This document shows positions 9,762 to 26,009 of a stretch of 64,000 bases of DNA, one piece after another. Position numbers and translations under genes: made by a program. Within the stretch, counting starts at the first letter, position 1, and every line of letters starts with the position of its first letter. The notes below the pieces were generated by a model. That model was not told the origin of the DNA and ran no database searches. It was given only the letters and a program-made list of their open reading frames with translations. Source of the stretch: a virus; the IMG/VR virus record IMGVR_UViG_3300044712_000688, positions 64,001-128,000 of that record; one strand, 5' to 3'.

Positions 9762-10213
9762 CCTACGAAAAAAACGGTCTAGCAAAACATTTAGCACACT
9801 TGCTAGCCGATGTAGTTACTCTTGGATTCCTGACTCAGGGATATCACTGGAATGTAAAGGGACTCAACTTCTCTCAGTTCCATGAGTTTTTTGCAGAGAT
9901 TTATGGAGATGTTGATAGCGCGATTGATCCGCTTGCTGAGAACATCCGCAAACTCGGGTATGACTCTCCTTACTTGCTCACTGACTTTGCTGAGCTGACT
10001 TGTATTGTCCGCCAAGAGCGCGAACTCGGTGACGCGGTTTCAATGGTAGAGTCTCTGGCTCGTGTAAACCAGTCAGTGCTTATGTGCTACGAACAGGCCT
10101 TCACCATGGCCAGTGCTTGCAATGAGCAGGGAATTGCTGATTTTGTTGCTGGACGTATTGACATGCACCAGAAGTGGCAGTGGCAGTTGAAATCAACTCT
10201 AGGGGTTCAGTAA
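9758..10213 (+). CDS. dps: Dps / ferritin-like protein
   Basis: YHWNVKG, FHEFF and IDPLAENI carry the Dps ferroxidase His/His/Asp/Glu set; KWQWQL C-terminus; ATGA overlap with portal. Confidence 0.9.
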   Translation: MTYEKNGLAKHLAHLLADVVTLGFLTQGYHWNVKGLNFSQFHEFFAEIYGDVDSAIDPLAENIRKLGYDSPYLLTDFAELTCIVRQERELGDAVSMVESLARVNQSVLMCYEQAFTMASACNEQGIADFVAGRIDMHQKWQWQLKSTLGVQ

Positions 10214-10896
10214 TGTCATACGTTGACGACATCTTCAAAAAGAATAATGGCGAGTACGTATTAGTTCCCGAAGAGGAAGAGCTAGCTAATGCTCTTCAGT
10301 TGATTGCCAACAAGTACGGCAAGTTCAACGATGACAACACCGGAATCTGGGCAGGATACACTCCTGCATCAGAGAACGAAGAGAACGCAGCCATTGGCGT
10401 CAAGTGTGGTAACTGCGTTTTCTTTAATGCACCTAACGGCTGCTCAATCATTGCAGCTGAAGTTGAAGATGGCGGGCTATGCCGTTTCGCAGTTCTGCCA
10501 GATGGTGCAGTGACCGCGACTGCCGGGTCTAAGCCAGCTCCCAAGAAAGACCGAATCAAGGGCTCTGACAAGAACAAAAAGGGATCGGCTGCCGAAGGCA
10601 AGTCTGTGAACTTCACCGAAGAGATTATTACAGCTCTAAAGAACAAACTAGAAACTCACAACAAGAAGGCACCAGACGGTAGGAAAGCTACTATGGCGGC
10701 CCTCAAGGCTGTGTATCGTCGTGGTGCAGGCGCATTCTCTACCTCACACCGACCAGACCAAAACCGCAACTCGTGGGCCATGGCTCGTGTAAATGCATAT
10801 TTGCACTTACTACGCTCTGGTTCTCCTAAAAATTCAAAATATACAACTGACAACGACCTGCTTCCAAAAGCACATCCGAAGTCAACTAGAAAATAA
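10213..10896 (+). CDS. Head-module protein: N-terminal HiPIP-like 4-Cys domain plus basic C-terminal domain
   Basis: AGY...KCGNCVFF..PNGCSII..EV..GGLCRF; C-terminal RRGAGAFSTSHRP..WAMARVN; TAATG coupling indicates start 10213. Confidence 0.7.
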   Translation: MSYVDDIFKKNNGEYVLVPEEEELANALQLIANKYGKFNDDNTGIWAGYTPASENEENAAIGVKCGNCVFFNAPNGCSIIAAEVEDGGLCRFAVLPDGAVTATAGSKPAPKKDRIKGSDKNKKGSAAEGKSVNFTEEIITALKNKLETHNKKAPDGRKATMAALKAVYRRGAGAFSTSHRPDQNRNSWAMARVNAYLHLLRSGSPKNSKYTTDNDLLPKAHPKSTRK

Positions 10897-10919: not shown

Positions 10920-10968
10920 TCTAGTATCATAGCTTAAGCAAATATTGCCCTGCTCAGGAAGGCCTAAA

Positions 10969-13900
10969 GTGAGCTCAGCATTCACTACTCTCATCAGCAA
11001 GATTGAAAACTACTACGCTGATCACGACTACACTACCGAGGATGCCGAGTATCTTTCTCGACTAGCCATCGTTGAGTACGCTAAGGAAAAGAACGCGCTG
11101 GTTGCTTCAGCTCGTCAGGTTCCAGAGACTTCGATTGACAACATCATCGAGACAGCAATCCACTTCAACCTAGATGCTGACCCGAGCGAGTGGATGCTAT
11201 TTGCAGCTAACGCTGTTGACAACGTCCTCAACTACTCCCACCACGGAATCATCGCCTCTGGCCTTGGCGAATACACCGACTTCCTACCTCTAGGACACCC
11301 TTCACGTACTAACCGCGGTGCTATGACCGCATCTGCTCTATCTCAGTTGACTGCCCTCTGGGTGGCCGGAGATCCTCGCATTGCTTCGGAGCAGGCTCGT
11401 CTTGACGTTTACAGTGCATATGCGACCAAGCCTGGGTCAGTAGAAGCCGACTACGCTAGCGCAAAGCTAGGTGCTTTAGTTGCTGCTGGCTATGTCCCAG
11501 AAGACGTAGTACTTCCTGTTACTGCAGCTTTCAAGATGAGCTTCGCTATGCGTTCTGCAATGGCAAAGGCGCTGGCCGCTGTTCGTCGTCGTCACCGTGA
11601 CGGTCGATTCGCGGAAGAGTTCGGACGTCTACGTGGGTTCTTCAAGCGCGGAGACGGAAGCATCTTCTCCGAGGATGGCCGTATTGTTGGTGCGCCAGCT
11701 GGAACTAATAACTTCCAGATTGAGATTAAAGACAGTCCAGAAATTCCTGATGGCATCTACACCATTGACGCTGCAAAGACTGCGCCAGTAAAAGCTATTC
11801 TTTCTAAGCGTGCGCTTTCTAAGGTAAAGGGTCTTAAGGCTAACCGCTCCATCACAAACCCGAGCAAGGCAGATATTGCTTCTGCAATTCCTCTAGAAGA
11901 CTTCCTAAAGACCCGTGCAGATGCTCCAGAGGGCTGGACCAAAAACGAAGACGGTTCTTTCACCTCTAAGACTGGTCAGACCGTAAAGGCAATTACCACC
12001 CAGCCTAAGGGCGACTATATGGTTGAGGGCGCAGGCGAGAGCGGTGCCATTGACCCTAACACCCCGATGTTTGAGATTCGCGATAAGAATGGCGAGCTTC
12101 TAGGTGTTGGTCAGAACTGGGCAGGTCTTAACAAGATTGCTATGACCTATGACGCCCTAAGTGGCGAAGGTAGCAACACTCCAGACGAGCCAGGGCTAGA
12201 CCAGAAGGCTGGTGGCTCTAATCTTGACTCGCTAGTTAAGGAGCTAAAAGACGCTTCGTCTAAGTGGATGGATGAACAGCGCTTCAGCCCAGACGAGTAT
12301 GACGAGGCCACGGATGCAATGCCAGACCCTGCCGTTACTGCTGACTTTATTCTCCAAGCTGAGAAGTCGGGGGACACCTCGGAACTCAAAGGGCTACTTG
12401 ATGCTTATGAGGAAAGGCCATATGCTGAAGTCCTTAAGAAGGCAATTGAGCGTATTGATGGTGAAAAGGGTCTAGACCAGAAGCCGGGAGAAGGCAAGAA
12501 CTGGTATGACAACACCATTGACTTTGACCACCTATCTGATCCAGCTAACTGGAAGGGCTTTAAGGAAGGTACCCATGAGTACGTCTCTCCAGATGGAAAG
12601 CTAGAGCTAACTTGGGAGCCAGACGGTGAGCCAGACATGGGCGATGGCGCTACAGATCTGTCTGGAATTAGTGTTACCTATGATGGTCAGCCAATTGGCT
12701 CTTACTTGGCAAGTTACCGTGATTTAGAAGACGGCGACATCGCAGATGGCCTAAAGGATCTTTTCAAGAAGGAAAGCTGGTTCAGCCCAGACAACCTTGT
12801 TAAGTTCGGCCAGTATGGCAGTGCAGAATACAACAGCCCTGACGGTGGTGGCGTATACGTTGAACCTAAGGGCTCTAAGTATGAAGTTACTAAGTCGATT
12901 CCTCAGGGTATGATTGACGAAAACGTCGAACACTCCTATGAAAAAGTCGAGACCTACAACACCAAGGAAGAGGCCCACAAAGCGGCCGAAGACTTTGCAA
13001 GGTTGCTTGAGGACCCTTCGAAGAAGTATGACCTTCTATACGGGGACTGGAGTGACAGTGACGGTGGCTTTGATCAAGCTCCGGGCGAACCTACAAAACT
13101 AAGCGCAGCTGGTAAGAAGATTGCCAAGGACCTAGGTGACCACAAGTTCTTCCTCGAAGAGGATGCAGACGGAAACTTTACTGGAGGAGAATCAACTTAC
13201 ACTTCTCCAGATGGTCGTGTAGAAGTTAAGTACCGTGACGGCTCTTGGTTTGATGACGAGAAGGGCTACGTTGCTTGGGACGAGATGCAGGTCTCTGTAG
13301 ACGGCAAGCCAGTTGACAGCGTACTTCGCAACAAGCGAGAGTCTTGGCCTGACTTTCTTGACCGTGTTGCTGCTATGGCAGAGAACGGTCTAGAGAACCC
13401 TAACTATGCAGAAGAGAAGAAGGCTAAGCGCGAAGCCGACCGCAAGGCTCAGGAAGACTTCTATAACTCTCCAGAGCAGGTAGAAAAGCGTGCCCGCGCT
13501 AAGTGGGAAAAGGAGCAGGAAGAAGCTGCTCAGGCTCAGGCTCGTGATGCAGCTGACAAAGAAGGTCTACTTAAGAAGGTAGATGATCTAGCAAACAAGA
13601 TCTTCAATGGTGAAAGCGACGACAGCATCTGGGTTGGCGACGAGGACGAAGAAGGCTTCCGCAACTGGGGCGTCTATAACGAAGATGGCGAAGAGGTTGC
13701 GACCGGAAACGCTGGACCAAACTGGGACGCTACTGATATTGCTTCCGAAATTCGTGATGGCGTTAACTCGTACCTAGACAAGAAGATGGAAGAAGAGGCT
13801 GACTTCCAGTCGGGCTTTGACCAGAAGGCTGGCGAAGACAAGGCGGAGGCACCAGCTAAGCCACTATCTGAAAAGCAGATGGAACCAGCTACTGACAAGC

Positions 13901-16392
13901 AGTACGCACTTCTTGAGGAGCTTAACTCAGAGCGTGATGGTATTGACCCAGTCACTCAGAAGGCTATTGACGATGCACTAGCCAACAAGAACCTGACAAA
14001 GGCTCAGATGGCGTCTCTGTTTGGCGACCTTACTAAGAAGCCTTTCAAGCCAAACGTAGACCCTACCAAGCCAACCGAGCGCCAGATCAACTCGCTTCAG
14101 GGCTACCTAACCACCAAAGAACTAACTCCTGACGAGATGAACGACATTCTTGCTCAGCTTGATGCGGGACTAGATCGCGACTCAATCGAAAAGATTACTG
14201 CCAAGCTACGTCGTCGTCCAGACCGTCAGCCGACTGAAGGATTTGACCAAGCTGCCGGAATTGACAGCGAGTTCGATGACGAATACGACTCGGCTCACGC
14301 TGATGTAGAGTCTGCAATTGACCAAGCTCTGGAGGACTACCAGAACTCGCTGGAGGCTGACGGACTATCTGAGGCAGAGATTTCTGACAAGATGGACGAG
14401 GCAAACCAGATTGCCGAGCGTCTGCGTGATTCGTCCAATGTTGCTGACGCACAGGGAGCCGAGCGTGACATTGCTAACGACACCACTGGTGGAATCTTTG
14501 ACAAGATTGTTGAAGACATTCGCACTAACGCAGAGGCTCTAGACTCACGTAAACAGAAGAACCTTGCTGACGCTGATCAGGCGAAGGCAGACGAGGTTCA
14601 GGCTGCGATTGACGGAGACGACTCTAGCTTCCTCGAAGACATCGTAAATGACCCGAGCTACAGCGAGTATCAGTCTCAGATTGAGGATGCTCTCGCTGAC
14701 ATCAACGCACGTAAGGGCGAAGAAGAGCCTGGATTTGATCAGGCTTCTGGTAAGACCATTGCTGATGCATGGGAAGGTCTAGACCAAGATACCAAGGACA
14801 GCGTAGTCGAGTCAATGAGCGACTACCTACTTAAGTTACGTCAAACTAACCCAGACGAGTTCTACGACATGGTTTATGACGTAGCTGTAGATCACCCAGA
14901 TGGCAAGCGTGTGATGCAAAAGCCTCAGAACTATGCCGAGGACTTCATTGACTTCTATGCTAATGAAGACCCAGAGCTGATTGCAGACATGCTTGAAAAT
15001 GCTGGAGTTGATCTTGACGGCTTTGACCAAGCTCCAGGCAAGACTCTATCTCCAAAGATGATGGAGCCAGCTACTGACGCTCAGTACAACTACTTGCAGA
15101 GTCTTTTCGACAGCAAGACTGGAATTGATGACGAGACTGCTCAGGCTGTTAAGGAAGCTCTTGACTCAAAGAACTTGACTAAGGCTCAGGCTGGTGGATT
15201 CATCGGTAAGCTCCGTGACCTTGGTGACAAGGAGAACATGGGCCAGTACGGCAAGCCTTCTCAGAAGATGATTGACTCTGTAAAGCGTGACGTCTACGCT
15301 AAGGGCCTATCTGACGCAGACCGCGAAGAAATTCTTAAGGGTCTAGAGGACAAGTCAAAGGGCGATGTCTCATTTATTATCAGCATGCTGAAAGAAATGG
15401 ATGACGTCGAGGGTGGTATTCCAAAGTACATTGACAGCCTAGTTCAGAGTGGCGACGTAGATGCATTGAAGCGTCTACGTGCTGACGATCGCTATGGTCG
15501 TTGGTCAAGCCAGATGGATGACGCTCTAGCAAAGATGGACTCTGGTAATCAGGGTTTTGACCAAGCTCCCGGGGAGCGCTCTAGCAGCGACCGAGGTCAG
15601 ATGAAGTCAGATCTATCTTCTCTAGCTGAAGAGGTAGAGAACAGCAATGAAATCGGCTACGCATTTCTAAACAAGAACTTCGTTGACGGTCTTGATCTGA
15701 ATGACCCTGACGACGCTTACTACCTACACGCTGAGTTGATGGATGCATACAAAGCAATGCGTCCTAACTCAGAAGAAGGTAAGGCATTGGAAGCTCGTCT
15801 TAAGAAGGCTGCTGATGACCTGCTCAACAGCATCGAGTCAGACCTAGGCCCTATTGAAGCAGCTAAGCGCGACCCAGAAGACATGGGAAGCAGTTTTGAA
15901 TTTGATAGTGCTGTAGATGACCTACCTGACTTCTTTGACTACTACTTCCCGACTGATGCATCATCGGATATGAGAAATGATCCAGATGGTGGTTCAGTTG
16001 GTGATGTTCGAGGTGGTGGCTGGGAAGCTTCTGTACGCTTCAACGAGGAAACTCAGAAGTGGGAAGCCGACATGACTTCGCCAGGATTTGCTTCCGAGAA
16101 CTACAGCGAGTCTTTCGATGACCAAGATGAAGCAGCCGACTGGGTAGCAAATGAGCTTGATCGCCAGAACACTTCAACACGTAATCGTGACACTAATATT
16201 CTTGCTGAAGATGGTCTTGCCGGACTCATCGAGGAGTATGGAGATGATCCAGCAGAACTAGCTGGCGTTCTAGAAGGTGTCATTGGATGGCTTCGAGGTA
16301 CTAACCGTGGACAAGCACAGAAGATTGCAAGTACTCTAGATGACTATGTTACTCGCCTACGCGAGCAGCTGGCCAAAAACCCAAAAGCCTAG
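10969..16392 (+). CDS. Giant acidic multi-module head-associated (polyvalent-type) protein, about 1807 aa
   Basis: Long ORF in head module; GTG 10969 follows CAGGAAGG; eight G[FL]DQ linkers and repeated helical modules. Confidence 0.85.
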   Translation: MSSAFTTLISKIENYYADHDYTTEDAEYLSRLAIVEYAKEKNALVASARQVPETSIDNIIETAIHFNLDADPSEWMLFAANAVDNVLNYSHHGIIASGLGEYTDFLPLGHPSRTNRGAMTASALSQLTALWVAGDPRIASEQARLDVYSAYATKPGSVEADYASAKLGALVAAGYVPEDVVLPVTAAFKMSFAMRSAMAKALAAVRRRHRDGRFAEEFGRLRGFFKRGDGSIFSEDGRIVGAPAGTNNFQIEIKDSPEIPDGIYTIDAAKTAPVKAILSKRALSKVKGLKANRSITNPSKADIASAIPLEDFLKTRADAPEGWTKNEDGSFTSKTGQTVKAITTQPKGDYMVEGAGESGAIDPNTPMFEIRDKNGELLGVGQNWAGLNKIAMTYDALSGEGSNTPDEPGLDQKAGGSNLDSLVKELKDASSKWMDEQRFSPDEYDEATDAMPDPAVTADFILQAEKSGDTSELKGLLDAYEERPYAEVLKKAIERIDGEKGLDQKPGEGKNWYDNTIDFDHLSDPANWKGFKEGTHEYVSPDGKLELTWEPDGEPDMGDGATDLSGISVTYDGQPIGSYLASYRDLEDGDIADGLKDLFKKESWFSPDNLVKFGQYGSAEYNSPDGGGVYVEPKGSKYEVTKSIPQGMIDENVEHSYEKVETYNTKEEAHKAAEDFARLLEDPSKKYDLLYGDWSDSDGGFDQAPGEPTKLSAAGKKIAKDLGDHKFFLEEDADGNFTGGESTYTSPDGRVEVKYRDGSWFDDEKGYVAWDEMQVSVDGKPVDSVLRNKRESWPDFLDRVAAMAENGLENPNYAEEKKAKREADRKAQEDFYNSPEQVEKRARAKWEKEQEEAAQAQARDAADKEGLLKKVDDLANKIFNGESDDSIWVGDEDEEGFRNWGVYNEDGEEVATGNAGPNWDATDIASEIRDGVNSYLDKKMEEEADFQSGFDQKAGEDKAEAPAKPLSEKQMEPATDKQYALLEELNSERDGIDPVTQKAIDDALANKNLTKAQMASLFGDLTKKPFKPNVDPTKPTERQINSLQGYLTTKELTPDEMNDILAQLDAGLDRDSIEKITAKLRRRPDRQPTEGFDQAAGIDSEFDDEYDSAHADVESAIDQALEDYQNSLEADGLSEAEISDKMDEANQIAERLRDSSNVADAQGAERDIANDTTGGIFDKIVEDIRTNAEALDSRKQKNLADADQAKADEVQAAIDGDDSSFLEDIVNDPSYSEYQSQIEDALADINARKGEEEPGFDQASGKTIADAWEGLDQDTKDSVVESMSDYLLKLRQTNPDEFYDMVYDVAVDHPDGKRVMQKPQNYAEDFIDFYANEDPELIADMLENAGVDLDGFDQAPGKTLSPKMMEPATDAQYNYLQSLFDSKTGIDDETAQAVKEALDSKNLTKAQAGGFIGKLRDLGDKENMGQYGKPSQKMIDSVKRDVYAKGLSDADREEILKGLEDKSKGDVSFIISMLKEMDDVEGGIPKYIDSLVQSGDVDALKRLRADDRYGRWSSQMDDALAKMDSGNQGFDQAPGERSSSDRGQMKSDLSSLAEEVENSNEIGYAFLNKNFVDGLDLNDPDDAYYLHAELMDAYKAMRPNSEEGKALEARLKKAADDLLNSIESDLGPIEAAKRDPEDMGSSFEFDSAVDDLPDFFDYYFPTDASSDMRNDPDGGSVGDVRGGGWEASVRFNEETQKWEADMTSPGFASENYSESFDDQDEAADWVANELDRQNTSTRNRDTNILAEDGLAGLIEEYGDDPAELAGVLEGVIGWLRGTNRGQAQKIASTLDDYVTRLREQLAKNPKA

Positions 16393-16410
16393 CCCCCAAT
16401 GAGGGGGCTG
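16380..16410 (+). promoter_or_regulatory. Programmed -1 ribosomal frameshift signal (C CCA AAA plus hairpin)
   Basis: X XXY YYZ heptamer 16380-16386 in frame; stem AGCCCCC/GGGGGCT (16391-16409); -1 frame open from 16344 to 18692. Confidence 0.75.
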
Positions 16411-18692
16411 AGCCTGGATTAGATCAGGACGCTCCAGATTTAGACCGAATCAAGAGCATCCTAGATAAGTACCGTACTAAGCCAACTGCCACAGAGACTG
16501 TACGTCCATCTGTAGCCGAAGGCGAGCCGGGATCTAGAACTAATCCACTCGAACTTACTCAGGAGCAACTTGATGAAAAGCTTGCCTCTGTAACCGAGAC
16601 TAACAAGGCTGCGGCTTCCAGTGTTTTGTCTAGCGTACTAGACAAACTGCGCAATCCTAGAAGCATCAAAGATTGGGTACAAAAGTGGAAGAGAGACGGT
16701 AACCGACCTCTCCCAGTCAACCCTGCAAGTGAGACCCACTACACCGGCCCCAACCTATTGGTCTTGGAAAACGCAGCTTCAGAAAACGGATTCAGCGACC
16801 CTAGATGGATGAGTGCGTCTCAGGTTGCTCAGGCTGGAGGAACAATCCCAGCTGGAACCAAGGGTACTCAGATTCTTGTACCTAGCTTCTTTGTAACCAC
16901 CCGTGACGGCAAGGTTGTCGAGCACTTTGAGTTTAGAAAAGTCACTGTTTTTAATGGTGATCAGATTCAAGGAATCGCTCCATACAACGCTGACGAAAAC
17001 AAGTCCTACACCGCAAAAGAGGCTGTAGATATCATCCTTGACAGAATGCGTGAAGCAGCCGAGCTTCGAGGTGTCAAGGCTCCTGAAATGTTTGGTATTC
17101 AGCTAGATGAAAACCAGAATCCACGCTGGATGCCTAACTATCGCGGAGAAGTTGATAGGATCCGACTACCACTCCGAGCAAACTTTGATAGCGATGAGTC
17201 TTGGTTTAATGCCATTACCCACGAACTAATTCACAGCACGGGTAGAACCAACCGACTTAACCGAGAAGAAGTTAAGAAGGCACTAGATGGAAACAGCAAT
17301 GCCTACGCAGAAGAAGAGCTAACTGCCGAGCTAGGCTCCATGCTTCTATCAAAGATGTTTGGTCTTGACGCTGACCAAGATAACTCAATCAGCTACTTGC
17401 TCACTCACATTAGAAACCTAGATGGCATTGACGCGGATAAGGCCGTGACTGATGCCATGACTAGGGCACAGCTAGCTGCCGACTACCTGCTTGGTAACGA
17501 TGTTCTTCCTCAGTGGAACCCGCTGAAGACTAAGGTTGCCCCGACCCCACAGTCGGTAAGAATGGCGTCTACTACTCCAGAAGACTCGAGCCTGAACCCA
17601 GACACTAATCCTGATTCAGTTGATGCTCCTCTAGTAGGACTTGACCAAGCCCCGGGCAAGAAGCCTTTCAACCGCGCTAAGTCCGTGTCTGACAGCAAGG
17701 ATGCTAAAGAGCGAGTTCTATCTGGACTACTGGAAAAGATTAAAGAAGGTAAGGCTCCTTGGCGTAAGCCATTTAAGGATGACGCTAACTATGCTGGTGC
17801 ATTCGTTCCGCGTAACCCAGCATCGAAGCACATTTACAGCGGTATTAACTCGATTGTTCTTAAGCTGTACCAGCAGTTGTCTGGGTATGACGATCCTCGC
17901 TGGATGACCTACAACCAAGCCACAGAATTAGGTGGTCAGGTTCGTAAGGGCGAGAAAGGTGTACAAATCCTTGTTCCTTATAAGAGGGTCAAGAAAGAGA
18001 AGGATTCCTCAACTGGAGAAGAGAAGGTAACTGGTAGTTACGTAACATTTGGTGTAAAGACCGTGTTCAATGTTGAGCAGATTGATGGTCTAAACCTGCC
18101 TACCGTCAAGGCCGAGGCTGGAGAGCCTAAGACCCCGCTCGAGGCACAAGACTTCATTCTTGAGCGCTACCAAAAGTCAATGGAGGCCAAGGGTCTAAAG
18201 GCTCCTGAAATTTCATATACATATGTAGGTCAGTACGGTAGCCACTCATCTTCTCCAAACTGGGACCCAAGTTTCGACATGATTACCCTCCCAACCAAGG
18301 AGCAGTTCAATAGCCCAGAGGATATGTTTGACACCATTGCCCATGAGCTTGCTCACTCGACCGGACACAGGGATCGCCTTGACCGCACCGAGCTAACCAA
18401 GAACTATGGAACAAGCAATGCAGCCCGAGGTGAGGAAGAGCTTATTGCAGAAATCTCTGCAGCAATCCTAGCCAGCATGTTCGGTGTTAACAGCGACTTT
18501 GACAATACCGCGGCCTATGTAAAGAGTTGGCTAAAAGCACTACAGGATAACCCTGATATGGTTATGAAAGCCTCTTCTGAAGCTCAGAAGGTAGTAGACT
18601 ATTTGCTAGGTATGGATCTGGGAGACTGGAGCCCTATCGAGGGTTACCGAGCATCAAACAAATCTAAATCAGATGGAGACTCAGATGAGTAA
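16386..18692 (+). CDS. ardC: Tandem ArdC-like protein (2x ssDNA-binding DUF1738 plus zincin metallopeptidase), probably the -1 frameshift extension of the giant protein
   Basis: PVNPASETHYTGPN..PRWM and PRNPASKHIYSGIN..PRWMTYNQA..GGQVRKGEKG; HELIH and HELAH HExxH motifs each followed by EEELxAE; frame open 80 codons upstream of the track's TTG 16626, which lacks an RBS. Confidence 0.85.
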   Translation, partial: SLAPNEGAEPGLDQDAPDLDRIKSILDKYRTKPTATETVRPSVAEGEPGSRTNPLELTQEQLDEKLASVTETNKAAASSVLSSVLDKLRNPRSIKDWVQKWKRDGNRPLPVNPASETHYTGPNLLVLENAASENGFSDPRWMSASQVAQAGGTIPAGTKGTQILVPSFFVTTRDGKVVEHFEFRKVTVFNGDQIQGIAPYNADENKSYTAKEAVDIILDRMREAAELRGVKAPEMFGIQLDENQNPRWMPNYRGEVDRIRLPLRANFDSDESWFNAITHELIHSTGRTNRLNREEVKKALDGNSNAYAEEELTAELGSMLLSKMFGLDADQDNSISYLLTHIRNLDGIDADKAVTDAMTRAQLAADYLLGNDVLPQWNPLKTKVAPTPQSVRMASTTPEDSSLNPDTNPDSVDAPLVGLDQAPGKKPFNRAKSVSDSKDAKERVLSGLLEKIKEGKAPWRKPFKDDANYAGAFVPRNPASKHIYSGINSIVLKLYQQLSGYDDPRWMTYNQATELGGQVRKGEKGVQILVPYKRVKKEKDSSTGEEKVTGSYVTFGVKTVFNVEQIDGLNLPTVKAEAGEPKTPLEAQDFILERYQKSMEAKGLKAPEISYTYVGQYGSHSSSPNWDPSFDMITLPTKEQFNSPEDMFDTIAHELAHSTGHRDRLDRTELTKNYGTSNAARGEEELIAEISAAILASMFGVNSDFDNTAAYVKSWLKALQDNPDMVMKASSEAQKVVDYLLGMDLGDWSPIEGYRASNKSKSDGDSDE

Positions 18693-18913: not shown

Positions 18914-21028
18914 ATGAACCACCTAATCGGCCGCTCTGGCGAACTAGCATTCTATGCTAACAATACACACGGTGTAGTGATCAACACTGCCGTAGGAGCT
19001 GTCGTCGCTAGCGGTGTAGCCCTCGACATTTTCGCAGAAAACAAATGGGAAACCTCGGGTACCCCCCTTACTCCGGCTGAAAAACTGCTTGCCGATAAGG
19101 TTCTAGCCAACCTAGAAGAAGAAGCCATCGTTGCTTCTGCAGACAGAATGTACACCATTCCTAAGTCTGTAGAGGCAGAGGCAAAGAAAGCTTTAGAGTG
19201 GCGTAAGGAAGAAGGCCGAGGAGGGACTCCTGTTGGCCTAAACACTGCTCGCACGCTTGCTAAGGGCGGTCAGATCGGTATCCGCAAGATTCGCCACATT
19301 GCTAAGTACTTCCCTCGTCACGAAGTTGATAAGAAGGGTAAAGGCTGGAAGCCTGGCCAAGATAACTTCCCATCTAACGGTCGTATCGCATGGGCACTTT
19401 GGGGTGGAGACGCCGCTTGGCGTTGGGCACGTGCAATCGTTGAGCGCGAAGATAAGAAAGAGAAGTCAGTCACTGCTGGTGGTGGCTACACTGTCTCTAA
19501 CTATGTAGATCAGGTCAACTACCCTAAGCAGAACGAAGAGCTAAACCCGTTCAAGTACGCTCATGAGCTTGATGAAAACTACGGCCCAGAATTCTTGGCT
19601 CGAGTTTGCCTAGATGGTTCTGGTATTGACCGACTTTACATGATAGACATAGACGGCTCGGTCTACGTCTGGGACGACGCTTGCTGGGACAACCTAGGTC
19701 ACGTTGATGGTGACATCTGGACATACGACCGTATGTTGGATGATGTCTATGATCTAGAGGAAAAGTCTCACGTAATTATTGACCCTCAGTCTGCTCTTAT
19801 GATTGCAGCTCGTATGGCTGTAGACCCATACTGCAAGACTTCTGTCTTTGATCTAGATGCTGATGAAGCTTCTTTAATGGAGGCTGGTATTGGTGGCGAA
19901 GACTGGGAGTTTATTGACCAAGTAATTACTGCCGCAGCCCCTACCAACCAAGACGGCAACTACACTCCAGAAGAGCGTTCAGCAAACGCTGGTAACCAGC
20001 CTCGAGACGCTATGGGCCAGTTTGCTAAGGTAGGCCAGAAGGTAGCTATCGGTGGAGACGCTGCTAGAGGTTCTGGCACAATCCGCGACATTGATGGTGC
20101 TACTGGTATTGTTACCGTTGACCTTGCTGATGGACGAACTGTAAAGGTTGGTTCTAAGTACCTAGTCCCTGCAGAAAAGGCAAGTAGTCGTCCAAACTCT
20201 TTGCGTGTTGATGATGCAAATAAAGCTCCTATGGACTTCTCTGGGATCATTGGCGAGCCTCGTACTCCTCAGAACAGCAAGAAGGCCCACCTTCCGGGAA
20301 CTCTACCAAAGCTAGATGTCAATGAATTTATCAACAACTACGCTTCTTGGGTGGAGAAGGAACGCTACAAGCCAAGGAGCGCAGCTGACAAGGCTGCGGT
20401 CAAGAAGCGTTGGCCAAATGCCAAGTTCACAGATGCATCTATCATTGCCTCTGCCGAAGAGAAGATTCTCACTCCTTCAACTTCTGACGTAACCCCTAGG
20501 TACCTAGCTATCGTTGCTCAGGAAGACCCTGAAGCAATGGTTGATCTAGTAGCAATTATTCCTAAGACCGCTACTTCCACTTCTCCAATTGCCTACAAGC
20601 GTGAGGGAGATAAGTGGGTTCAGGATGACCAGACCCTAGCAGACCTTCGTTCAGCAACTAAGCCTCCAGTAGTAGAGCTAGATAAAGAATCCCTAAAGGA
20701 TGTTCTATCTCAGATGTCTGAGAACAAGCCTACAGAAGAGACTGCTCCAGAAGCGGTTATGGCTAGCTTGCTTACTGTCCTCGATGCTTTTGTGGCAGCA
20801 GGTGGAGCTGATAAGAACCGTGGCAACGCAGAAAAACTTCGTCGCTACTGGGTATATGGAGAAGGTGCTGCCAAGATCCGCTGGGGCCAGCCTGGAGACT
20901 GGAAGCGTTGTGTACGCTACCTAGCTAAGCACCTAGGCCCACGTGCAAAGGGATACTGCCAACTTCGTCACAAGGATGCCCTTGGCTACTACACCGCAAC
21001 CCATGCGAAAAGAGACCGTAATGGCTAA
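18914..21028 (+). CDS. Multi-domain head morphogenesis protein
   Basis: GRGGTPVGL..YFPRHEVD..IAWALWGGDA domain, QPRDAMGQF motif and C-terminal YWxxGxGAAKIRWG domain; head-module position. Confidence 0.7.
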   Translation: MNHLIGRSGELAFYANNTHGVVINTAVGAVVASGVALDIFAENKWETSGTPLTPAEKLLADKVLANLEEEAIVASADRMYTIPKSVEAEAKKALEWRKEEGRGGTPVGLNTARTLAKGGQIGIRKIRHIAKYFPRHEVDKKGKGWKPGQDNFPSNGRIAWALWGGDAAWRWARAIVEREDKKEKSVTAGGGYTVSNYVDQVNYPKQNEELNPFKYAHELDENYGPEFLARVCLDGSGIDRLYMIDIDGSVYVWDDACWDNLGHVDGDIWTYDRMLDDVYDLEEKSHVIIDPQSALMIAARMAVDPYCKTSVFDLDADEASLMEAGIGGEDWEFIDQVITAAAPTNQDGNYTPEERSANAGNQPRDAMGQFAKVGQKVAIGGDAARGSGTIRDIDGATGIVTVDLADGRTVKVGSKYLVPAEKASSRPNSLRVDDANKAPMDFSGIIGEPRTPQNSKKAHLPGTLPKLDVNEFINNYASWVEKERYKPRSAADKAAVKKRWPNAKFTDASIIASAEEKILTPSTSDVTPRYLAIVAQEDPEAMVDLVAIIPKTATSTSPIAYKREGDKWVQDDQTLADLRSATKPPVVELDKESLKDVLSQMSENKPTEETAPEAVMASLLTVLDAFVAAGGADKNRGNAEKLRRYWVYGEGAAKIRWGQPGDWKRCVRYLAKHLGPRAKGYCQLRHKDALGYYTATHAKRDRNG

Positions 21029-23861
21029 CGAACAAGAATTCCTTATGGAAGAGATTTTGACCAAGAATTACGGTGTTCCTACGGAGATCACCGATGAAGA
21101 TCTATTGATGCCTATCGAAGACATCATGTTTGAAGATGATGACATCTACGATGACTCTTGGGAGCCAGACGAGGAAACTTGCCGTCAGCTAGCCGAGCTA
21201 GCGGATTGCGATGACGAAGAATATGCGTCCCTTATTGCTGCTGGTGGCCTAGACCGTAACCGTGGTAACGCAGAGGAGCTTCGCCAGTACTGGACTCGCG
21301 GTAAGGGCGCTGCCAAGATTCGCTGGGGTACCCCTGGCGATTGGACTCGTTGCGTTCGTCAGCTTTCAAAGTACATGGGCCCACGCGCTAAGGGCTATTG
21401 CCAGCTACGCCACAAGGACGCGACTGGTATCTACACTGGTAGCCGATTCAACCCGGGCCGTCGTAATGAAACCTCTAGCCTATATGCAAGCGAAGCTGAG
21501 TTTACCCAGTCGGTTATCGCTCAGGCAGAACTTACTGCTAGAGCGAACCACGCTAGAGAGCGTTTCGGTCTAGTTGCAAGTGCTGGTATGCAACACGGTG
21601 CAAAGTTCAACATTCCTCTACTGATCCCAGAAGACTTGGAGTCAGGAGATGGCCGTAAGTTTGTGAAGGACTCTCTATCAGTTCGAGAGCTTCCACTTCC
21701 ACTTCTATGGCAGATCAAGACCGGCGACGGTCACATGGGGTCTGTGGTGGTTGGACGTATTGATTACGTAGAAAGAACCGAAAACGGTATTGGAAATGCC
21801 TATGGTGTTTTTGATACAGGAGCATATGGTCAAGAAGCAGAGCGTCTAGTACGTAACGGATTTATCCGTGGTGTTTCTGCAGATCTTGACCAGTTCGAAG
21901 CAGAAGAAGATAAGACTGAAAATGCTGAGGACACCGAAGACGTAGGTAAGAAGAAGTTAACCATAAATCACGCCCGTGTAATGGCTGCTACAATTGTAGC
22001 TAAGCCTGCATTCCAAGAATGCACTATCTCTATTGAAGAAAAACCAGCGGGAGACCAGGAGGATGAAGTGATTCCAGTTGACGGAATATATGAAGAATCC
22101 GTCGAACAAGAATTCTCTGGCACATCGCTAGTTGCTTCAGGATTCATTGACGGCGAGATTCCTATGACACCACCAGCAGAGTGGTTCAAGGATCCTAAGC
22201 TAACTAAGCCAACCCCAATCACCGTTGACCCTTCTGGTCGTATCTACGGTCACATTGCAGCTTGGCACGTAAACCACATTGGCATGCCTCGCTCTACCCG
22301 CCCACCTCGCTCAAAGAGCAAGTACGCATACTTCCACACTGGTGTAGTCCGCTGTGCTGACGGAACTGACATGCCAGTGGGACAGTTAACTCTTGCTGGT
22401 GGACACGCACCTCTAACTGCTAACGCTGCTTCTGCAGCTAAGCACTACGACGACACCGCTTCTGCGATTGCAGATGTTCACATGGGTGAAGACGAGTATG
22501 GAATCTGGTGTGCTGGCTCGGTACGTCCAGACGCAACCGAGATGCAGATTCGCGCACTTCGCGCTTCTGCTCCTTCTGGCGACTGGCGTCCAATTAATGG
22601 CTCGCTCGAGCTTGTTGCAGTTTGTCAGGTAAACGTTCCAGGCTTCCCGATTGCTCGCGCAATGGTTGCTTCAGGTAAGGTTATGGCTCTAGTTGCAGCT
22701 GGTGCAAGCATGATGGCAATCATGAAGAGTCAGCACGTAGCAACCCTATCTGAGCGTGCATACAACCTAGCTGAACTTTCAGCTAGCGCCCCAGACCTAC
22801 GTTCTCGTGTAAAGTCTGCAAAGAAGGCTGTAAAGAAGCAGGCTCTAGTTGCTGCTGCTGCTAAGGCAGAAGAACTAAAGACCCGTGCTCTAGTTGCTGC
22901 TGCCGTTGCCGAGCTAGCTAAGTTCTCTGACGAAGAGAGAATGAAGCTTGCTGACAAGGGTCAGGCTCTACCAGATGGTTCGTTCCCAGTGCGCAACGAA
23001 CAGGATCTCCGTAATGCTATCCAAGCATATGGACGTGCAAAGCGAGAGAACCGAGTAGCTGTCCGCAAGCACATTATCAAGCGAGCTAAGGCTCTAGGTA
23101 AGGCATACCTGATTCCAGATGAGTGGAAGTCAGCTGGTTCTACCGAGGCCGCGACAATCGTTGCTTCGATGCGTTCTCGTATCGCAGAATTTGCAGAAGC
23201 CCCGATCAAGGAGATTTCTGACGCAGACCTAAAGAAGCTGAAGGATGTAAAGGCCGAAGCTGACAAGCAGACTGCAGAAGAGATCAAGCTCGCTGAGGAT
23301 ATTCGTACTGGTAAGACTACTGCCAAGGAAGTCTATGACAAAGAAGGTCGTAGCAAGTACACCCCAAAAACCCAACCCCGTGACGCTAAAGGTAAGTACC
23401 GCAAGGTTCTTGCTCGACTAAAGCAGAACCTAGGTGTGGCGGGGCTTCAGAAGGCTTTGGAAAAGGTAGAAAAGGCAGAAAACCTAGAGTTTGCTGGCGA
23501 CTACGTAAACTCAGCCAAGGCTAGTAGCGAGCTACTAGGAATGATTGATCGTCTAGATACTAAGGCCCTAAACCCTAAGTCTCTAGAAAACGTCCGCTCA
23601 ACAGCGGCCGAACTAGGCAAGACAATTGCCAACCTTCCATTGCCATTCGGCAAGGAAGCTCAGAAAGTTAGATTTAGCGATCTACCTGCCGGACTAAAGA
23701 CACTCATCGATGGGATGATTTCTCGAGTCGAAGCAAAGATCGGTAAAGAGGACGCAGATATTGCAACCGCAAATCTGAAGTCCTTCATGTCTGGTGCAGA
23801 TGTCTATTCTCAGGCTGAAATTCAGTCAGAGATGAACACCCTGCTCCGACTCCTTACCTAA
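21021..23861 (+). CDS. Capsid maturation (prohead) protease-containing multi-domain protein
   Basis: GDGRKF..LPLPLLWQ..GHMGSVVVGRID protease-like segment, GRIYGHIAAW..SGDWR..VNVPGFP domain, ALPDGSFPVRN (DUF6582-like); directly upstream of capsid; ATG 21021 preferred. Confidence 0.75.
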   Translation: MANEQEFLMEEILTKNYGVPTEITDEDLLMPIEDIMFEDDDIYDDSWEPDEETCRQLAELADCDDEEYASLIAAGGLDRNRGNAEELRQYWTRGKGAAKIRWGTPGDWTRCVRQLSKYMGPRAKGYCQLRHKDATGIYTGSRFNPGRRNETSSLYASEAEFTQSVIAQAELTARANHARERFGLVASAGMQHGAKFNIPLLIPEDLESGDGRKFVKDSLSVRELPLPLLWQIKTGDGHMGSVVVGRIDYVERTENGIGNAYGVFDTGAYGQEAERLVRNGFIRGVSADLDQFEAEEDKTENAEDTEDVGKKKLTINHARVMAATIVAKPAFQECTISIEEKPAGDQEDEVIPVDGIYEESVEQEFSGTSLVASGFIDGEIPMTPPAEWFKDPKLTKPTPITVDPSGRIYGHIAAWHVNHIGMPRSTRPPRSKSKYAYFHTGVVRCADGTDMPVGQLTLAGGHAPLTANAASAAKHYDDTASAIADVHMGEDEYGIWCAGSVRPDATEMQIRALRASAPSGDWRPINGSLELVAVCQVNVPGFPIARAMVASGKVMALVAAGASMMAIMKSQHVATLSERAYNLAELSASAPDLRSRVKSAKKAVKKQALVAAAAKAEELKTRALVAAAVAELAKFSDEERMKLADKGQALPDGSFPVRNEQDLRNAIQAYGRAKRENRVAVRKHIIKRAKALGKAYLIPDEWKSAGSTEAATIVASMRSRIAEFAEAPIKEISDADLKKLKDVKAEADKQTAEEIKLAEDIRTGKTTAKEVYDKEGRSKYTPKTQPRDAKGKYRKVLARLKQNLGVAGLQKALEKVEKAENLEFAGDYVNSAKASSELLGMIDRLDTKALNPKSLENVRSTAAELGKTIANLPLPFGKEAQKVRFSDLPAGLKTLIDGMISRVEAKIGKEDADIATANLKSFMSGADVYSQAEIQSEMNTLLRLLT

Positions 23862-23876: not shown

Positions 23877-23987
23877 TAGTGATAGGTGGAGCGCCTCGCA
23901 CATTCCGTGCTGAGTCCCTCAGCCTTGACTGTTCACCATGAATGGGATCTTCCTATTCATAAAACCAATACTGGCCTAGGAGGTACA

Positions 23988-26009
23988 GTGTACGACCAGA
24001 TTAAAACACAGCTAGACACCCTGGCTGATCTTAGCGATGAACAACTCGCTGAGCTTCAGACCCAGATTGTCGGCGAGTTTGAATCGATCGATGCTGATGA
24101 ACCAACTTCCGAGTCAGTTGATGCGATGACATCCCTAGCGGATTCCCTTGACATCGTACGTGGTGAGCTTTCTCGTCGCGAGGCCCTCGCTGAAGAGTTA
24201 GCTGCTCGTGCGGCTGAGGCTACTGCCCGTATTAAGGGTGGAGCCGAAGAAGGAGAGGAAATGGCTATGGAAGACATGCCAATCGTAGAAGAGGCCCCTG
24301 TAGAAGAGGCCCCTGTTGAGGAAGCCCCAGTAGAAGAAGCAGAGGAAACTCCTGCTGACGAAGTTACTGAGACTCCTGAAGAGGAAAAGAAGGAAGAGGA
24401 AGAGGACAAGGAAGAGCCTATGAAGGCATCTGCCGAGACCGAAACCACTCCTGAAACTTCAGCATCAATTGACCAGGAATCAGGTTCTGAACTATCGACC
24501 GAATCGGTTGAGACTGTTGACGAGACCATTACTGCAGACGGTTCTGCCGAGGAAGTAGTTGCTGATGAAGCTCCTGCTACCGAAGCTGCCGTAGAAGCAA
24601 CCGAAGCTCCGGCTGAAGTTGTTGTAGAAGCAGTAGAGGGTTCGGAAGCATCAGCCGAAGAAACCACTTTAGAAACATCAACCGCTCTCGTAGAAGAGCA
24701 GAAAGAGCAGGCACTAGTGAGCGCCGCAGCAGAACAGCCTTTCGAGGCTCCAGCTGACCGTCAGCCTGTAGTTCAGGTAACCGAGGCTCCAGTGGCAATC
24801 ACCGCTGGCGCAGACATCCCTGGCTACACCGCAGGCAGCACCATCAACGATATGAACGAAGTAGCTCAGGCTATGGAGAAGCGTATCCACTCGCTACGCC
24901 GTGTAAACGGCGGCGACGGAGAGCAGCACATCGTTGCATCTATCACCACTCAGTACCCAGAAGAGCGTACTCTTACTGCTAACGCAGAAGAGAATGCCCT
25001 CAAGATTGGTAACGTTGTAGGTCAGGACGCACTTGTTGCTTCTGGTGGCCACGCAGCTCCATTCGAGGTCAAGTACGACATCTTCGCAATCGGTTCAACC
25101 ACTGTACGCCCAGTTCGCGATGCACTGCCTCGCTTCCAGGCTGACCGTGGCGGTATCCGCTTTGTGACCCCACCTAGCTTCGCATCTGGTGACTACGCTA
25201 GCGCAGTTGGCGTATGGACCGCAGCTGTTGACGCTGACCCACAGAGCGCTACTAAGACCAGCTTGACCGTTACCGCTGCTCAGGAGCAGACTGTTTCGAC
25301 TGACGCTGTTACCTTGCAGCTACAGTTCGGTAACCTCATGACTCGTGCTTACCCAGAGTTGATTGCTCGCCACAACGAGCTAGCTCTTGTACAGCACGCT
25401 CGCGAGGCAGAGCAGAACCTGCTAAGCAAGATTGGTGACGCTTCGACTGCTGTTACTACCACCAACCTAATCGGTTTTGGTCGTGACTTCCTAGTTCAGA
25501 TCCGTCGTGCAGCTGTTGCTTACCGCTCACGTCACCGCATTGACCCACAGACCCGTCTGAAGGCTATCGTTCCTTCATGGATCTACGAGGCAATGGCAGC
25601 TGACCTAACCCTATCAATGCCTGGTGACGGCACCCTTGCTGTCTCACGCGCTGAGATTGATGGTTACCTTGCAACCGTTAACGTTGACCTAGTGGCTTCG
25701 CTAGACCAGAACGTCTTCGGTGCACAGGGTGCTTCGGCTCTTCTAGAGTTCCCAGACAGCTTCGTTTGGTACCTCTTCGCAGAAGGCACCTTCCTGTTCC
25801 TTGATGGCGGTACTCTTGACCTTGGTATCATCCGTGACTCGTCACTGGTTGGCACCAACGACTACAAGATGTTCACCGAAACCTTCGAGAACGTTGCTAA
25901 GGTCGGTATCGAGGCTCTTAAGATCACCTCGACCATCTCAATCAACGGTGTTGCTGCAGCTCTGCGCGACACCACTGGTGGCACCGCTGCAGCCACCATC
26001 GAGCTCTAA
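23988..26009 (+). CDS. Major capsid protein (hexamer type) with long acidic N-terminal scaffold-like region
   Basis: GTG 23988 after AGGAGG; Glu/Ala-rich N-terminus; ALVASGG..VRDALPRFQADRGGIRF and FLFLDGGTLDLGIIRDS..NDY motifs. Confidence 0.9.
   Translation: MYDQIKTQLDTLADLSDEQLAELQTQIVGEFESIDADEPTSESVDAMTSLADSLDIVRGELSRREALAEELAARAAEATARIKGGAEEGEEMAMEDMPIVEEAPVEEAPVEEAPVEEAEETPADEVTETPEEEKKEEEEDKEEPMKASAETETTPETSASIDQESGSELSTESVETVDETITADGSAEEVVADEAPATEAAVEATEAPAEVVVEAVEGSEASAEETTLETSTALVEEQKEQALVSAAAEQPFEAPADRQPVVQVTEAPVAITAGADIPGYTAGSTINDMNEVAQAMEKRIHSLRRVNGGDGEQHIVASITTQYPEERTLTANAEENALKIGNVVGQDALVASGGHAAPFEVKYDIFAIGSTTVRPVRDALPRFQADRGGIRFVTPPSFASGDYASAVGVWTAAVDADPQSATKTSLTVTAAQEQTVSTDAVTLQLQFGNLMTRAYPELIARHNELALVQHAREAEQNLLSKIGDASTAVTTTNLIGFGRDFLVQIRRAAVAYRSRHRIDPQTRLKAIVPSWIYEAMAADLTLSMPGDGTLAVSRAEIDGYLATVNVDLVASLDQNVFGAQGASALLEFPDSFVWYLFAEGTFLFLDGGTLDLGIIRDSSLVGTNDYKMFTETFENVAKVGIEALKITSTISINGVAAALRDTTGGTAAATIEL

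Follow-up and report, generated by a model that had tools for sequence, protein, structure and literature searches.

The giant protein encoded in the head gene cluster of this uncultured actinobacterial phage is divided by a seven-residue peptide tag, G-[FL]-x-Q-x-[AP]-G. The evidence supports these tags as real, peptide-level, lineage-conserved borders between independently folding modules, because the linkers that hold them are predicted to be disordered and because cassettes are gained, lost and shuffled exactly at the tags. To explain them we tentatively prefer, from the sequence, a cargo polyprotein of the Gag/Gag-Pol type, whose own ArdC-type metallopeptidase may cleave it at the tags. 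Coordinates refer to the window, the whole 64,000-nucleotide stretch of viral DNA analysed. The giant gene is flanked by genes for the portal and the prohead protease and was read from GTG 10969, as in homologues, instead of TTG 10945, where the ORF listing begins.

10969..16392, plus strand: giant modular ORF (ORF1), 1,807 aa from GTG 10969; 199 kDa, pI 4.35
10969..12192, plus strand: N-terminal domain, 408 aa; conserved, found in every homologue

The sequence-only reading had listed ten G-[FL]-D-Q sites as candidate cleavage sites. A six-frame scan recovered all ten exactly and added an eleventh in-frame copy, at 14776, that the list had missed. Eight of the listed tags lie in the ORF 10945-16392; the other two, at 16416 and 17637, belong to the -1 frame, which stays open as far as 18692.

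12193..12213, plus strand: tag 1, G-L-D-Q-K-A-G (six-frame scan)
12469..12489, plus strand: tag 2, G-L-D-Q-K-P-G; 12 nt identical to tag 1
13066..13086, plus strand: tag 3, G-F-D-Q-A-P-G (six-frame scan)
13813..13833, plus strand: tag 4, G-F-D-Q-K-A-G; AF2 low-confidence segment, model residues 1-33
14239..14259, plus strand: tag 5, G-F-D-Q-A-A-G; AF2 low-confidence segment 156-167
14731..14751, plus strand: tag 6, G-F-D-Q-A-S-G; AF2 low-confidence segment 319-331
14776..14796, plus strand: extra in-frame copy, G-L-D-Q-D-T-K; inside predicted helices, pLDDT 71-84
15019..15039, plus strand: tag 7, G-F-D-Q-A-P-G; AF2 low-confidence segment 420-430
15553..15573, plus strand: tag 8, G-F-D-Q-A-P-G; AF2 low-confidence segment 595-620
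16416..16436, plus strand: tag 9, G-L-D-Q-D-A-P; -1 frame, first conserved element after the shift
17637..17657, plus strand: tag 10, G-L-D-Q-A-P-G; separates ArdC unit 1 from unit 2, AF2 disordered, pLDDT <50

Within ORF1 (1,815 aa), G-[FL]-D-Q occurs 9 times against 0.06 expected from its own composition, and 11 of the 12 matches in the 136,298-bp genome (ORFs of at least 80 aa) fall in the giant protein. The tag takes the form G-[FL]-D-Q-[AKD]-[AP]-[GP] there; family-wide, the Asp is dispensable and the core is G-hydrophobic-x-Q-x-[AP]-G. Its surroundings are disordered and acidic or Pro-rich, with the Phe/Leu and Gln invariant in a seven-residue island. As described earlier, codons vary among copies (GGG/GGT/GGC/GGA, CTA/TTT/TTA/CTT, GAC/GAT and CAG/CAA), so the conserved thing is the peptide.

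Structure prediction placed the tags between folds. The AF2 model of aa 940-1559 contains five low-pLDDT segments with one canonical tag in each, and its pTM of 0.28, together with separate folded domains, indicates domains without a fixed mutual arrangement. All canonical tags tested lay in disordered inter-domain segments, in line with the linker role first suggested for them; the extra copy at 14776, modelled within helices, is probably not a linker. Counting the -1 extension described below, the predicted frameshift fusion of 2,574 aa is split by the tags into 11 pieces, the shortest of 92 aa and the longest of 408 aa. The claim that the flanking modules are mostly unrelated stood at a stringent threshold and failed for aa 949-1090 and 1351-1528, which cluster as paralogues. 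For the nine ORF1 modules, we found no significant Pfam or PHROG family, and Foldseek returned nothing.

In a comparison of 22 homologues, cassettes bounded by tags came and went as entire units and stood at differing positions. The relative L005, for example, is without the 92-aa cassette between tags 1 and 2, and the junction falls within the tag. The peptide is retained across lineages whose DNA is unalignable and outlives its diverging flanks, with variants (P-G-L-D-Q-D-A-P, [SD]-L-D-Q-[DN]-V and G-F-A-Q-E-P-G) that differ between phage clades. Distant tag-rich giant proteins of 2,848-4,167 aa, 36-40% identical in one module only, hold 13-17 copies of G-F-x-Q-x-[PA]-G versus ~1 expected. 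A motif not conserved in homologues would have spoken against the sequence-only reading; conservation was found. Among ArdC homologues outside the lineage, G-[FL]-x-Q is not enriched (6 observed versus 11 expected), and in certain relatives with tandem ArdC (P0042-P0049) the two units are joined without a tag; both points count against the reading we prefer. The literature searched does not describe such a tag system.

Near the 3' end of ORF1 lies a candidate -1 frameshift signal.

16380..16386, plus strand: slippery heptamer C_CCA_AAA, in frame with the giant ORF
16391..16409, plus strand: hairpin of 7 bp, G+C, with a 5-nt loop, four nt past the heptamer; no T run
16386..18692, plus strand: -1 frame extension, 768 aa; with ORF1, a predicted 2,574-aa, 284-kDa fusion

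The slippery site and hairpin are conserved in eight further loci (L001, L003, L005-L007, L010, L011 and L058). The hairpin core CCCCC-N5-GGGGG is kept in all relatives while the loops vary, and two farther clades have A_AAA_AAA in place of C_CCA_AAA. As in Gag/Gag-Pol, an X_XXY_YYZ site and a downstream structure are followed by an open -1 frame that encodes an enzyme.

16437..17636, plus strand: ArdC unit 1 (ArdC-N + MPTase); HExxH at 17220-17234, then an E-E-E-L Glu helix
17658..18689, plus strand: ArdC unit 2 (ArdC-N + MPTase); HExxH at 18342-18356; AF2 mean pLDDT 82

These ArdC-N and MPTase domains share a chain with the ORF1 modules only if the -1 frameshift occurs. Pfam searches returned two copies each of PF08401 and PF18818, well above curated cut-offs. 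Both units have the ArdC order, ArdC-N and then a gluzincin with HExxH and a Glu-helix ligand, in a confident AF2 model. H256, E257, H260, E287 and E288 do not vary across an alignment of 31 sequences. Against cleavage by ArdC, the AF2 model did not put the adjacent tag in the active site. We know of no substrate for any ArdC-type MPTase. In R388 ArdC, the HExxH and Glu-helix residues are metal ligands, the site-specific protease IrrE is among the fold neighbours, and the E229A mutant still supports conjugation (PMC7213743), so that proteolysis by an ArdC MPTase domain has never been demonstrated.

Tags and ArdC units occur together. Tandem ArdC-N/zincin units end every tag-rich lineage with readable 3' context (11 loci or proteins), and ArdC units are themselves bordered by tags. 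They stand behind the frameshift signal in the window, L001, L005, L006, L007, L010, L011 and L058, and in frame, with no shift needed, in the distant P0150, P0151 and P0155. L003 has the same signal and an open -1 frame, and its contig ends too early for any ArdC to be read. The syntenic phages DSL-LC01 and Zooman, the closest isolates, have no ArdC/MPTase and no tags, and they keep a hydrophobic-V-A-S motif. Co-inheritance of tags and ArdC units as one mobile 'polyvalent' block could also explain the pairing, which counts against the reading we prefer. Within the extension, relatives have ART (PF03496) and ParB (PF02195) cassettes.

The neighbouring head genes carry this second motif.

20943..23861, plus strand: prohead protease/scaffold-like protein p972, 972 aa; no tag; seven hydrophobic-[VIT]-A-[SA]-[GA] sites
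23886..26009, plus strand: major capsid protein (MCP), 707 aa; no conserved tag

Seven of the eight genomic copies of hydrophobic-V-A-S-[GA] lie in head genes, and the motif is invariant in the MCP alignment. The MCP has a long N-terminal coiled-coil/acidic region and an invariant A-L-V-A-S-G-G at aa 383 (nt 25032). Within the giant protein the motif is confined to the N-terminal domain, where four hydrophobic-x-A-[SA]-[GA] sites were found (aa 52, 102, 127 and 178 of P0001). In the window and relatives, MCP, p704, p972 and the portal have either no G-[FL]-x-Q or none that is conserved; head proteins that have no tag yet share hydrophobic-V-A-S-[GA] point to a second specificity. From these sequences, hydrophobic-V-A-S-[GA] is likelier than the tag to be the prohead-protease site.

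The sequence-only reading had left open whether the metallopeptidase or the prohead protease would cut the tags. The sequences lead us to favour the frameshift-delivered metallopeptidase, because the head proteins carry the other motif and because the two syntenic phages without ArdC/MPTase are also without tags. Cleavage by the prohead protease (assemblin-fold, S78-like) at 20943-23861 during head maturation, on the pattern of T4 and phiKZ/SPN3US, seems to us unlikely. The giant gene adjoins the protease gene in the head module, and the two products probably meet, since the N-terminal domain has the motif common to MCP and scaffold. T4 gp21 cleaves after [LI]-x-E, and the hydrophobic-x-Q of the tag formally resembles hydrophobic-x-E. 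SPN3US gp245 offers a precedent: its substrates, head and ejection proteins alike, are cleaved after A-x-E (PMC10052503). In T4 and SPN3US, however, a single motif serves for capsid and cargo, whereas here the enzyme would need two unrelated specificities, and DSL-LC01 and Zooman have the head module and hydrophobic-V-A-S sites yet no tags. We regard as similarly doubtful the view that the tags stay uncut and act as docking motifs on an intact beads-on-a-string protein, bound by a phage partner (inner capsid surface, scaffold or portal) or a host partner that would arrange or hand over the modules. An invariant Phe/Leu and Gln island between disordered acidic/Pro-rich flanks suits binding as well as proteolysis, and large virion proteins can be packaged uncut, as exemplified by N4 vRNAP (PMC5512222). 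Docking nevertheless leaves unexplained why the motif stands at essentially every module boundary and only at boundaries, why cassette exchange is bordered by it and why a tag separates the ArdC units; no candidate receptor was identified.

Cutting after ejection, by a host protease or an unrecognised phage protease, appears improbable. The motif is exposed and conserved, and since genome scans gave no protease besides p972 and the two MPTases, a further enzyme could come from the host. The strict co-occurrence of tags with ArdC/MPTase across lineages would then be coincidence, however, and tags that vary by clade are easier to reconcile with a phage enzyme evolving alongside them than with a host enzyme that is conserved. 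We give very little credence to a role at the nucleic-acid or translation level, with the tags as recombination joints or 2A-like skipping peptides and no protease or binding role. One cassette indel junction does fall in the 12-nt stretch identical between two tags, but codons differ at nearly every degenerate position and the peptide is kept where DNA cannot be aligned. The 2A consensus D-[VI]-E-x-N-P-G-P was compared with the tag and rejected: its signature is missing, with no N-P-G-P in logos of 60, 117 and 86 instances. 2A skipping is not known to occur on bacterial ribosomes.

Under the metallopeptidase reading, the gene would encode a head-associated cargo polyprotein in which the N-terminal domain, presumed to be the part that serves prohead incorporation, is followed by small acidic swappable modules separated by tags. 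Most ribosomes would stop at 16392 and yield the 199-kDa product, and a minority would slip -1 at C_CCA_AAA, adding a tag, ArdC unit 1, a tag and ArdC unit 2 to reach 284 kDa. Both products would enter the prohead through their common N-terminal domain, and the sub-stoichiometric ArdC-type gluzincins may then cut exposed tags in cis and in trans. Cutting would turn the chains into ~11 individual proteins (10-45 kDa), which would exit together with the DNA. The timing is speculative: cleavage would have to follow assembly, and its trigger might be the binding of ArdC-N to DNA, by analogy with Spartan, a structurally related protease.

MPTase domains have been proposed to autoprocess polyvalent proteins, releasing domains (Iyer, Burroughs, Anand, de Souza and Aravind 2017, PMC5512222). 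Like these, the giant protein is a phage polypeptide of many unrelated domains (eleven tag-bounded modules, within the 2-15 distinct domains of the class) that includes the signature domains ArdC-N and MPTase-PolyVal, a zincin, and adjoins head genes. Unlike them, it has a defined seven-residue tag at every joint and an MPTase that a conserved -1 frameshift would add, distant relatives having theirs in frame; the main text of PMC5512222 does not use the word 'linker', and no frameshift is described. Nine of its eleven modules match no known family, and the recognisable effector enzyme domains of polyvalent proteins (ART, nucleases) were not found in ORF1. In SPN3US-type prohead maturation, the protease recognises a short consensus in proteins packaged in the head and cuts some of them several times, and the products are ejected (PMC10052503). 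The substrates of T4 gp21, phiKZ gp175 and SPN3US gp245 resemble the giant protein, whose packaging and cutting are proposals, in having a short consensus motif. There, capsid, portal and cargo share one motif (A-x-E or L-x-E) and what is cut off is an N-terminal propeptide, whereas the tag is exclusive to one protein, lies between all modules and differs from the capsid/scaffold motif. Retroviral Gag/Gag-Pol shares the structural polyprotein, the -1 X_XXY_YYZ site and structure that add a low-stoichiometry protease, and the inter-domain sites, features predicted for the phage from its sequence. It differs in using an aspartic protease in place of a zincin and in processing a shell protein in place of the cargo of a dsDNA tailed phage. 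R388 ArdC (PDB 6I89 family; PMC7213743) has, like the phage units, an ssDNA-binding ArdC-N domain joined to a gluzincin domain that contains HExxH and a Glu helix; Pfam matches both domains, and the metal ligands are conserved. It is a stand-alone protein of 297 aa with no known substrate, in contrast to the phage units, which are C-terminal cassettes of a tagged polyprotein.

We suggest, with more caution still, that a tailed dsDNA phage may have a retrovirus-like cut-here code, read by a frameshift-dosed and perhaps DNA-switched zincin that would free ~11 ejected effectors, and more than 20 in relatives. If true, this would give the ArdC/MPTase proteases, as a family, their first defined substrate and recognition site, and would make it possible to parse giant phage ORFs by rule into single anti-defence candidates.

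The giant protein encoded downstream of the portal gene is divided into modules by a short linker peptide, G-[FL]-D-Q, here called the tag. All ten sites listed by the sequence-only reading were confirmed in position and frame, and an eleventh in-frame copy, absent from that list, was found at 14776. The giant ORF (ORF1) carries 9 copies against ~0.06 expected, and a scan of all ORFs of at least 80 aa placed 11 of the genome's 12 matches in the giant protein. Codons differ between copies at nearly every degenerate position, bearing out a further point of that reading and indicating that selection acts on the peptide. This codon diversity makes a DNA-level repeat very unlikely, and the consensus speaks against a 2A-like peptide. 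Weak hydrophobic-D-Q matches in the major capsid protein (MCP; aa 195 and 606) are not conserved and were rejected as tags. The region is organized as follows:

8001-9761, portal, first gene of the head module
9758-10896, Dps/ferritin-like gene followed by a DUF5824 gene, between the portal and giant genes
10945/10969-16392, ORF1, after the DUF5824 gene
open to 18692, −1 frame ORF with two ArdC-N + MPTase units, after ORF1
3' of the −1 frame ORF, in order: p704 (704 aa), p972 (972 aa, prohead-protease/scaffold-like) and MCP (707 aa)

The source record (136,298 bp) has direct terminal repeats at its ends, and, judged by the capsid protein, the phage groups with those of actinobacteria. Its nearest isolate by this protein is Actinomycetia phage DSL-LC01 (69% identity), with more distant relatives in Microbacterium, Arthrobacter, Gordonia and Mycobacterium phages. 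The Dps/ferritin-like and DUF5824 genes (9758-10896) are unusual content for a head module; the DUF5824 homologue in DSL-LC01 is annotated as a high-potential iron-sulfur protein. The scaffold/protease gene spans ~1,500 aa in five related loci (L005, L006, L007, L010 and L039) and is split in the window into the 704-aa and 972-aa ORFs, which overlap by 86 nt. A ~70-aa domain with Trp/Cys residues, resembling phrog_6439, is duplicated, one copy forming the end of p704 and the other lying near the start of p972. The arrangement (20768-20980 and ~21222-21300) looks as if duplication had split one gene in two, and less like a frameshift from sequencing.

Structure prediction across the tagged segments, a check proposed by the earlier reading, placed the modelled canonical tags in disordered segments between domains. 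The AlphaFold2 model of aa 940-1559, based on an alignment of 22 homologues, shows well-predicted helical domains and five intervening segments with pLDDT under 50 (model residues 1-33, 156-167, 319-331, 420-430 and 595-620). The five canonical tags begin at residues 18, 160, 324, 420 and 598, one per disordered segment. The 14776 copy (residues 339-345) lies within helices in this model and is probably fortuitous. A pTM of 0.28 indicates that the domains are not fixed in position relative to one another. In Pfam and PHROGs, hints to module identity all stayed below threshold (DUF3072, E = 0.002, for aa 1351-1528); the modules had no match by PDB profile search or by Foldseek against the PDB, and the N-terminal domain had none in the ESM Atlas. 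Modules 13813-14238 and 15019-15552 are paralogous, sharing the motif E-P-A-T-x-x-Q-Y-x-x-L and a weak resemblance to DUF3072/phrog_636 (E = 0.002). They are the family's most conserved cassettes and are almost confined to giant phage proteins.

A motif search in homologues, also suggested earlier, found 6-10 tags in all 22 homologues (45-83% identity). The consensus is G-[FL]-D-Q-[AKNS]-[AP]-G in the near clade and P-G-[LF]-D-Q-D-[AV]-P in a farther clade. We cut the proteins at every tag and clustered the resulting pieces. The ends are conserved, comprising a ~405-aa N-terminal domain and two C-terminal modules. The cassettes between them are variable, there or missing as entire tag-to-tag units, and the same cassette occupies differing positions among phages. 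Locus L005, for example, is missing the 92-aa cassette that tags 1 and 2 flank (window 12193-12489, L005 11195-11263). Because this indel junction falls inside 12 nt (CTAGACCAGAAG) common to the two tags, tag-coding DNA may also provide microhomology for cassette gain and loss. The L006 giant ORF has one in-frame stop (12112-12114), with frame 0 continuing on either side, which an assembly error, pseudogene formation or readthrough could explain.

The tag extends well beyond these homologues. When 1.84 billion representatives were searched with phmmer, the module at aa 1351-1528 appeared almost only in giant proteins. Five distant giant proteins (2,848-4,167 aa), with module identity of only 36-40%, carry 13-17 G-F-x-Q copies against ~1 expected, with the consensus G-F-[ADNS]-Q-x-[PA]-G. 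The Asp position varies here, so this residue is dispensable, and by these comparisons the family-wide core is G-hydrophobic-x-Q-x-[AP]-G. Other clades use [SD]-L-D-Q-[DN]-V or S-x-x-Q-[DA]-A-P. When viral contigs were scanned for the pattern P-G-L-D-Q-D-A-P, multiple matches came from the window's family only.

Tag-rich giant ORFs with readable downstream DNA (the window and L001, L003, L005, L006, L007, L010, L011 and L058) all end at one type of signal: a slippery heptamer (C_CCA_AAA, with A_AAA_AAA taking its place in two farther clades), then G-C-N-T-A-[GA] and a CCCCC-N5-GGGGG hairpin with a variable loop. This signal, at 16380-16409 in the window, is conserved across deep divergence. 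Locus L039 has the same signal, yet only ~4 degenerate tags. In all signal-bearing loci but L039, the −1 frame begins with a tag. More cassettes and a pair of HExxH/ArdC units follow; in L003 the contig ends before the ArdC region. Joining both frames of L058 would give ~5,100 aa with 23 tags. In three distant proteins, tandem ArdC-N + MPTase units are fused in frame, indicating that the giant protein-ArdC fusion architecture is natural.

Tags were also found between the two ArdC units. Both units of the window retain the HExxH and Glu helix, residues of which bind metal in plasmid R388 ArdC (PMC7213743). AlphaFold2 predicted ArdC unit 2 confidently, with residues 1-34, including the upstream tag, disordered; in this model the tag is not docked in the active site and the linker is simply disordered. 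In some relatives, ADP-ribosyltransferase (PF03496) and/or ParB-like nuclease (PF02195) cassettes adjoin the ArdC tandem (P0030, P0056, P0061-P0063, P0066, P0067, P0072, P0073, P0075 and P0078), indicating that the frameshift extension, too, forms a variable array of effectors.

A second motif, hydrophobic-V-A-S-[GA], occurs 8 times in the genome's long ORFs, with 7 of the 8 in head genes:

11098, 19001, 19127, 21570, 22128, 22662 and 25032, copies of hydrophobic-V-A-S-[GA]
11248, 11323 and 11476, looser matches

The N-terminal domain of the giant protein has one copy (four in looser form), p704 two, p972 three and MCP one. At aa 383 the MCP copy reads A-L-V-A-S-G-G; it does not vary among relatives, DSL-LC01 among them, and is present in Microbacterium phage Zooman. 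Herpesvirus assemblin sites have the form hydrophobic-x-A|S, which the motif in these head proteins resembles, and it is the likely assemblin-type prohead-protease site. A cut at aa 383 would leave a mature MCP of ~322 aa, removing a 385-aa coiled-coil/acidic N-terminal region.

In DSL-LC01 and Zooman the gene order matches that of the window, a giant protein follows the portal, and the hydrophobic-V-A-S sites are present. The DSL-LC01 giant protein (3,289 aa) has an N-terminal region homologous to that of the window (32% identity); that of Zooman has 1,764 aa. ArdC/MPTase is missing from the corresponding region of both phages, and the Zooman giant ORF ends without a frameshift signal. DSL-LC01 has no G-[FL]-D-Q repeat, and Zooman has 1 G-[FL]-x-Q against 0.5 expected. 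Tags thus track the metallopeptidase rather than the prohead protease, although tags and ArdC units may simply co-travel as one block. ArdC homologues outside the window's lineage show no tag enrichment, so the association is lineage-specific rather than a general ArdC property. ArdC polyvalent proteins outside the lineage do not use the tag, so conjugative elements cannot discriminate between the two enzymes.

The proposal of a cleaved polyprotein is therefore supported in part: the tags are real, disordered, conserved cassette borders that co-occur with an ArdC-type zincin, while cleavage remains putative. The tag is best explained as a putative recognition site for processing, because it lies on essentially every domain boundary and only on boundaries, is exposed, retains Phe/Leu and Gln without exception across deep divergence, and forms the edges of exchanged cassettes. 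Uncut docking motifs are an improbable reading of the same peptides. As for the enzyme, the sequence-only reading named two candidates, and comparative evidence favours the ArdC-type metallopeptidase, encoded in cis, which we tentatively regard as a plausible candidate. Cutting by the prohead protease appears unlikely: G-[FL]-x-Q is absent or unconserved in MCP, p704, p972 and portal of the window and its relatives, and DSL-LC01 and Zooman share the hydrophobic-V-A-S sites yet lack tags. A host protease is a very unlikely agent.

If the tag is a processing site, conservation centred on Q suggests a scissile bond adjacent to Gln; alternatively, the cut could be G|F if the zincin has a hydrophobic S1' pocket. 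Cutting would have to follow prohead incorporation, because otherwise the N-terminal domain alone would be packaged. DNA-dependent activation of the zincin, as in Spartan, would be one speculative mechanism. Autoprocessing of polyvalent proteins by MPTase was proposed by Iyer et al. 2017, whose main text does not contain the words 'linker' and 'frameshift' (PMC5512222). Our literature search turned up neither a description of the tag nor anything comparable on a phage polyprotein with a frameshift and metallopeptidase.

To our knowledge, no site or substrate has ever been defined for polyvalent-protein processing by zincin domains, and we know of no established target of the ArdC protease domain. 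The window's family offers a precise candidate site and, on the same chain, a candidate enzyme; clade-specific tag variants, in-frame and frameshift forms, and tag-less syntenic phages provide natural controls. With the tags, 'hypothetical' sequence running to thousands of residues is parsed into separate cassettes. Most of these are acidic, often exchanged and of unknown family, the profile to be expected if they are anti-defence effectors that are injected. Should cleavage be confirmed, the family would exemplify expression logic of the Gag/Gag-Pol type in a tailed phage.
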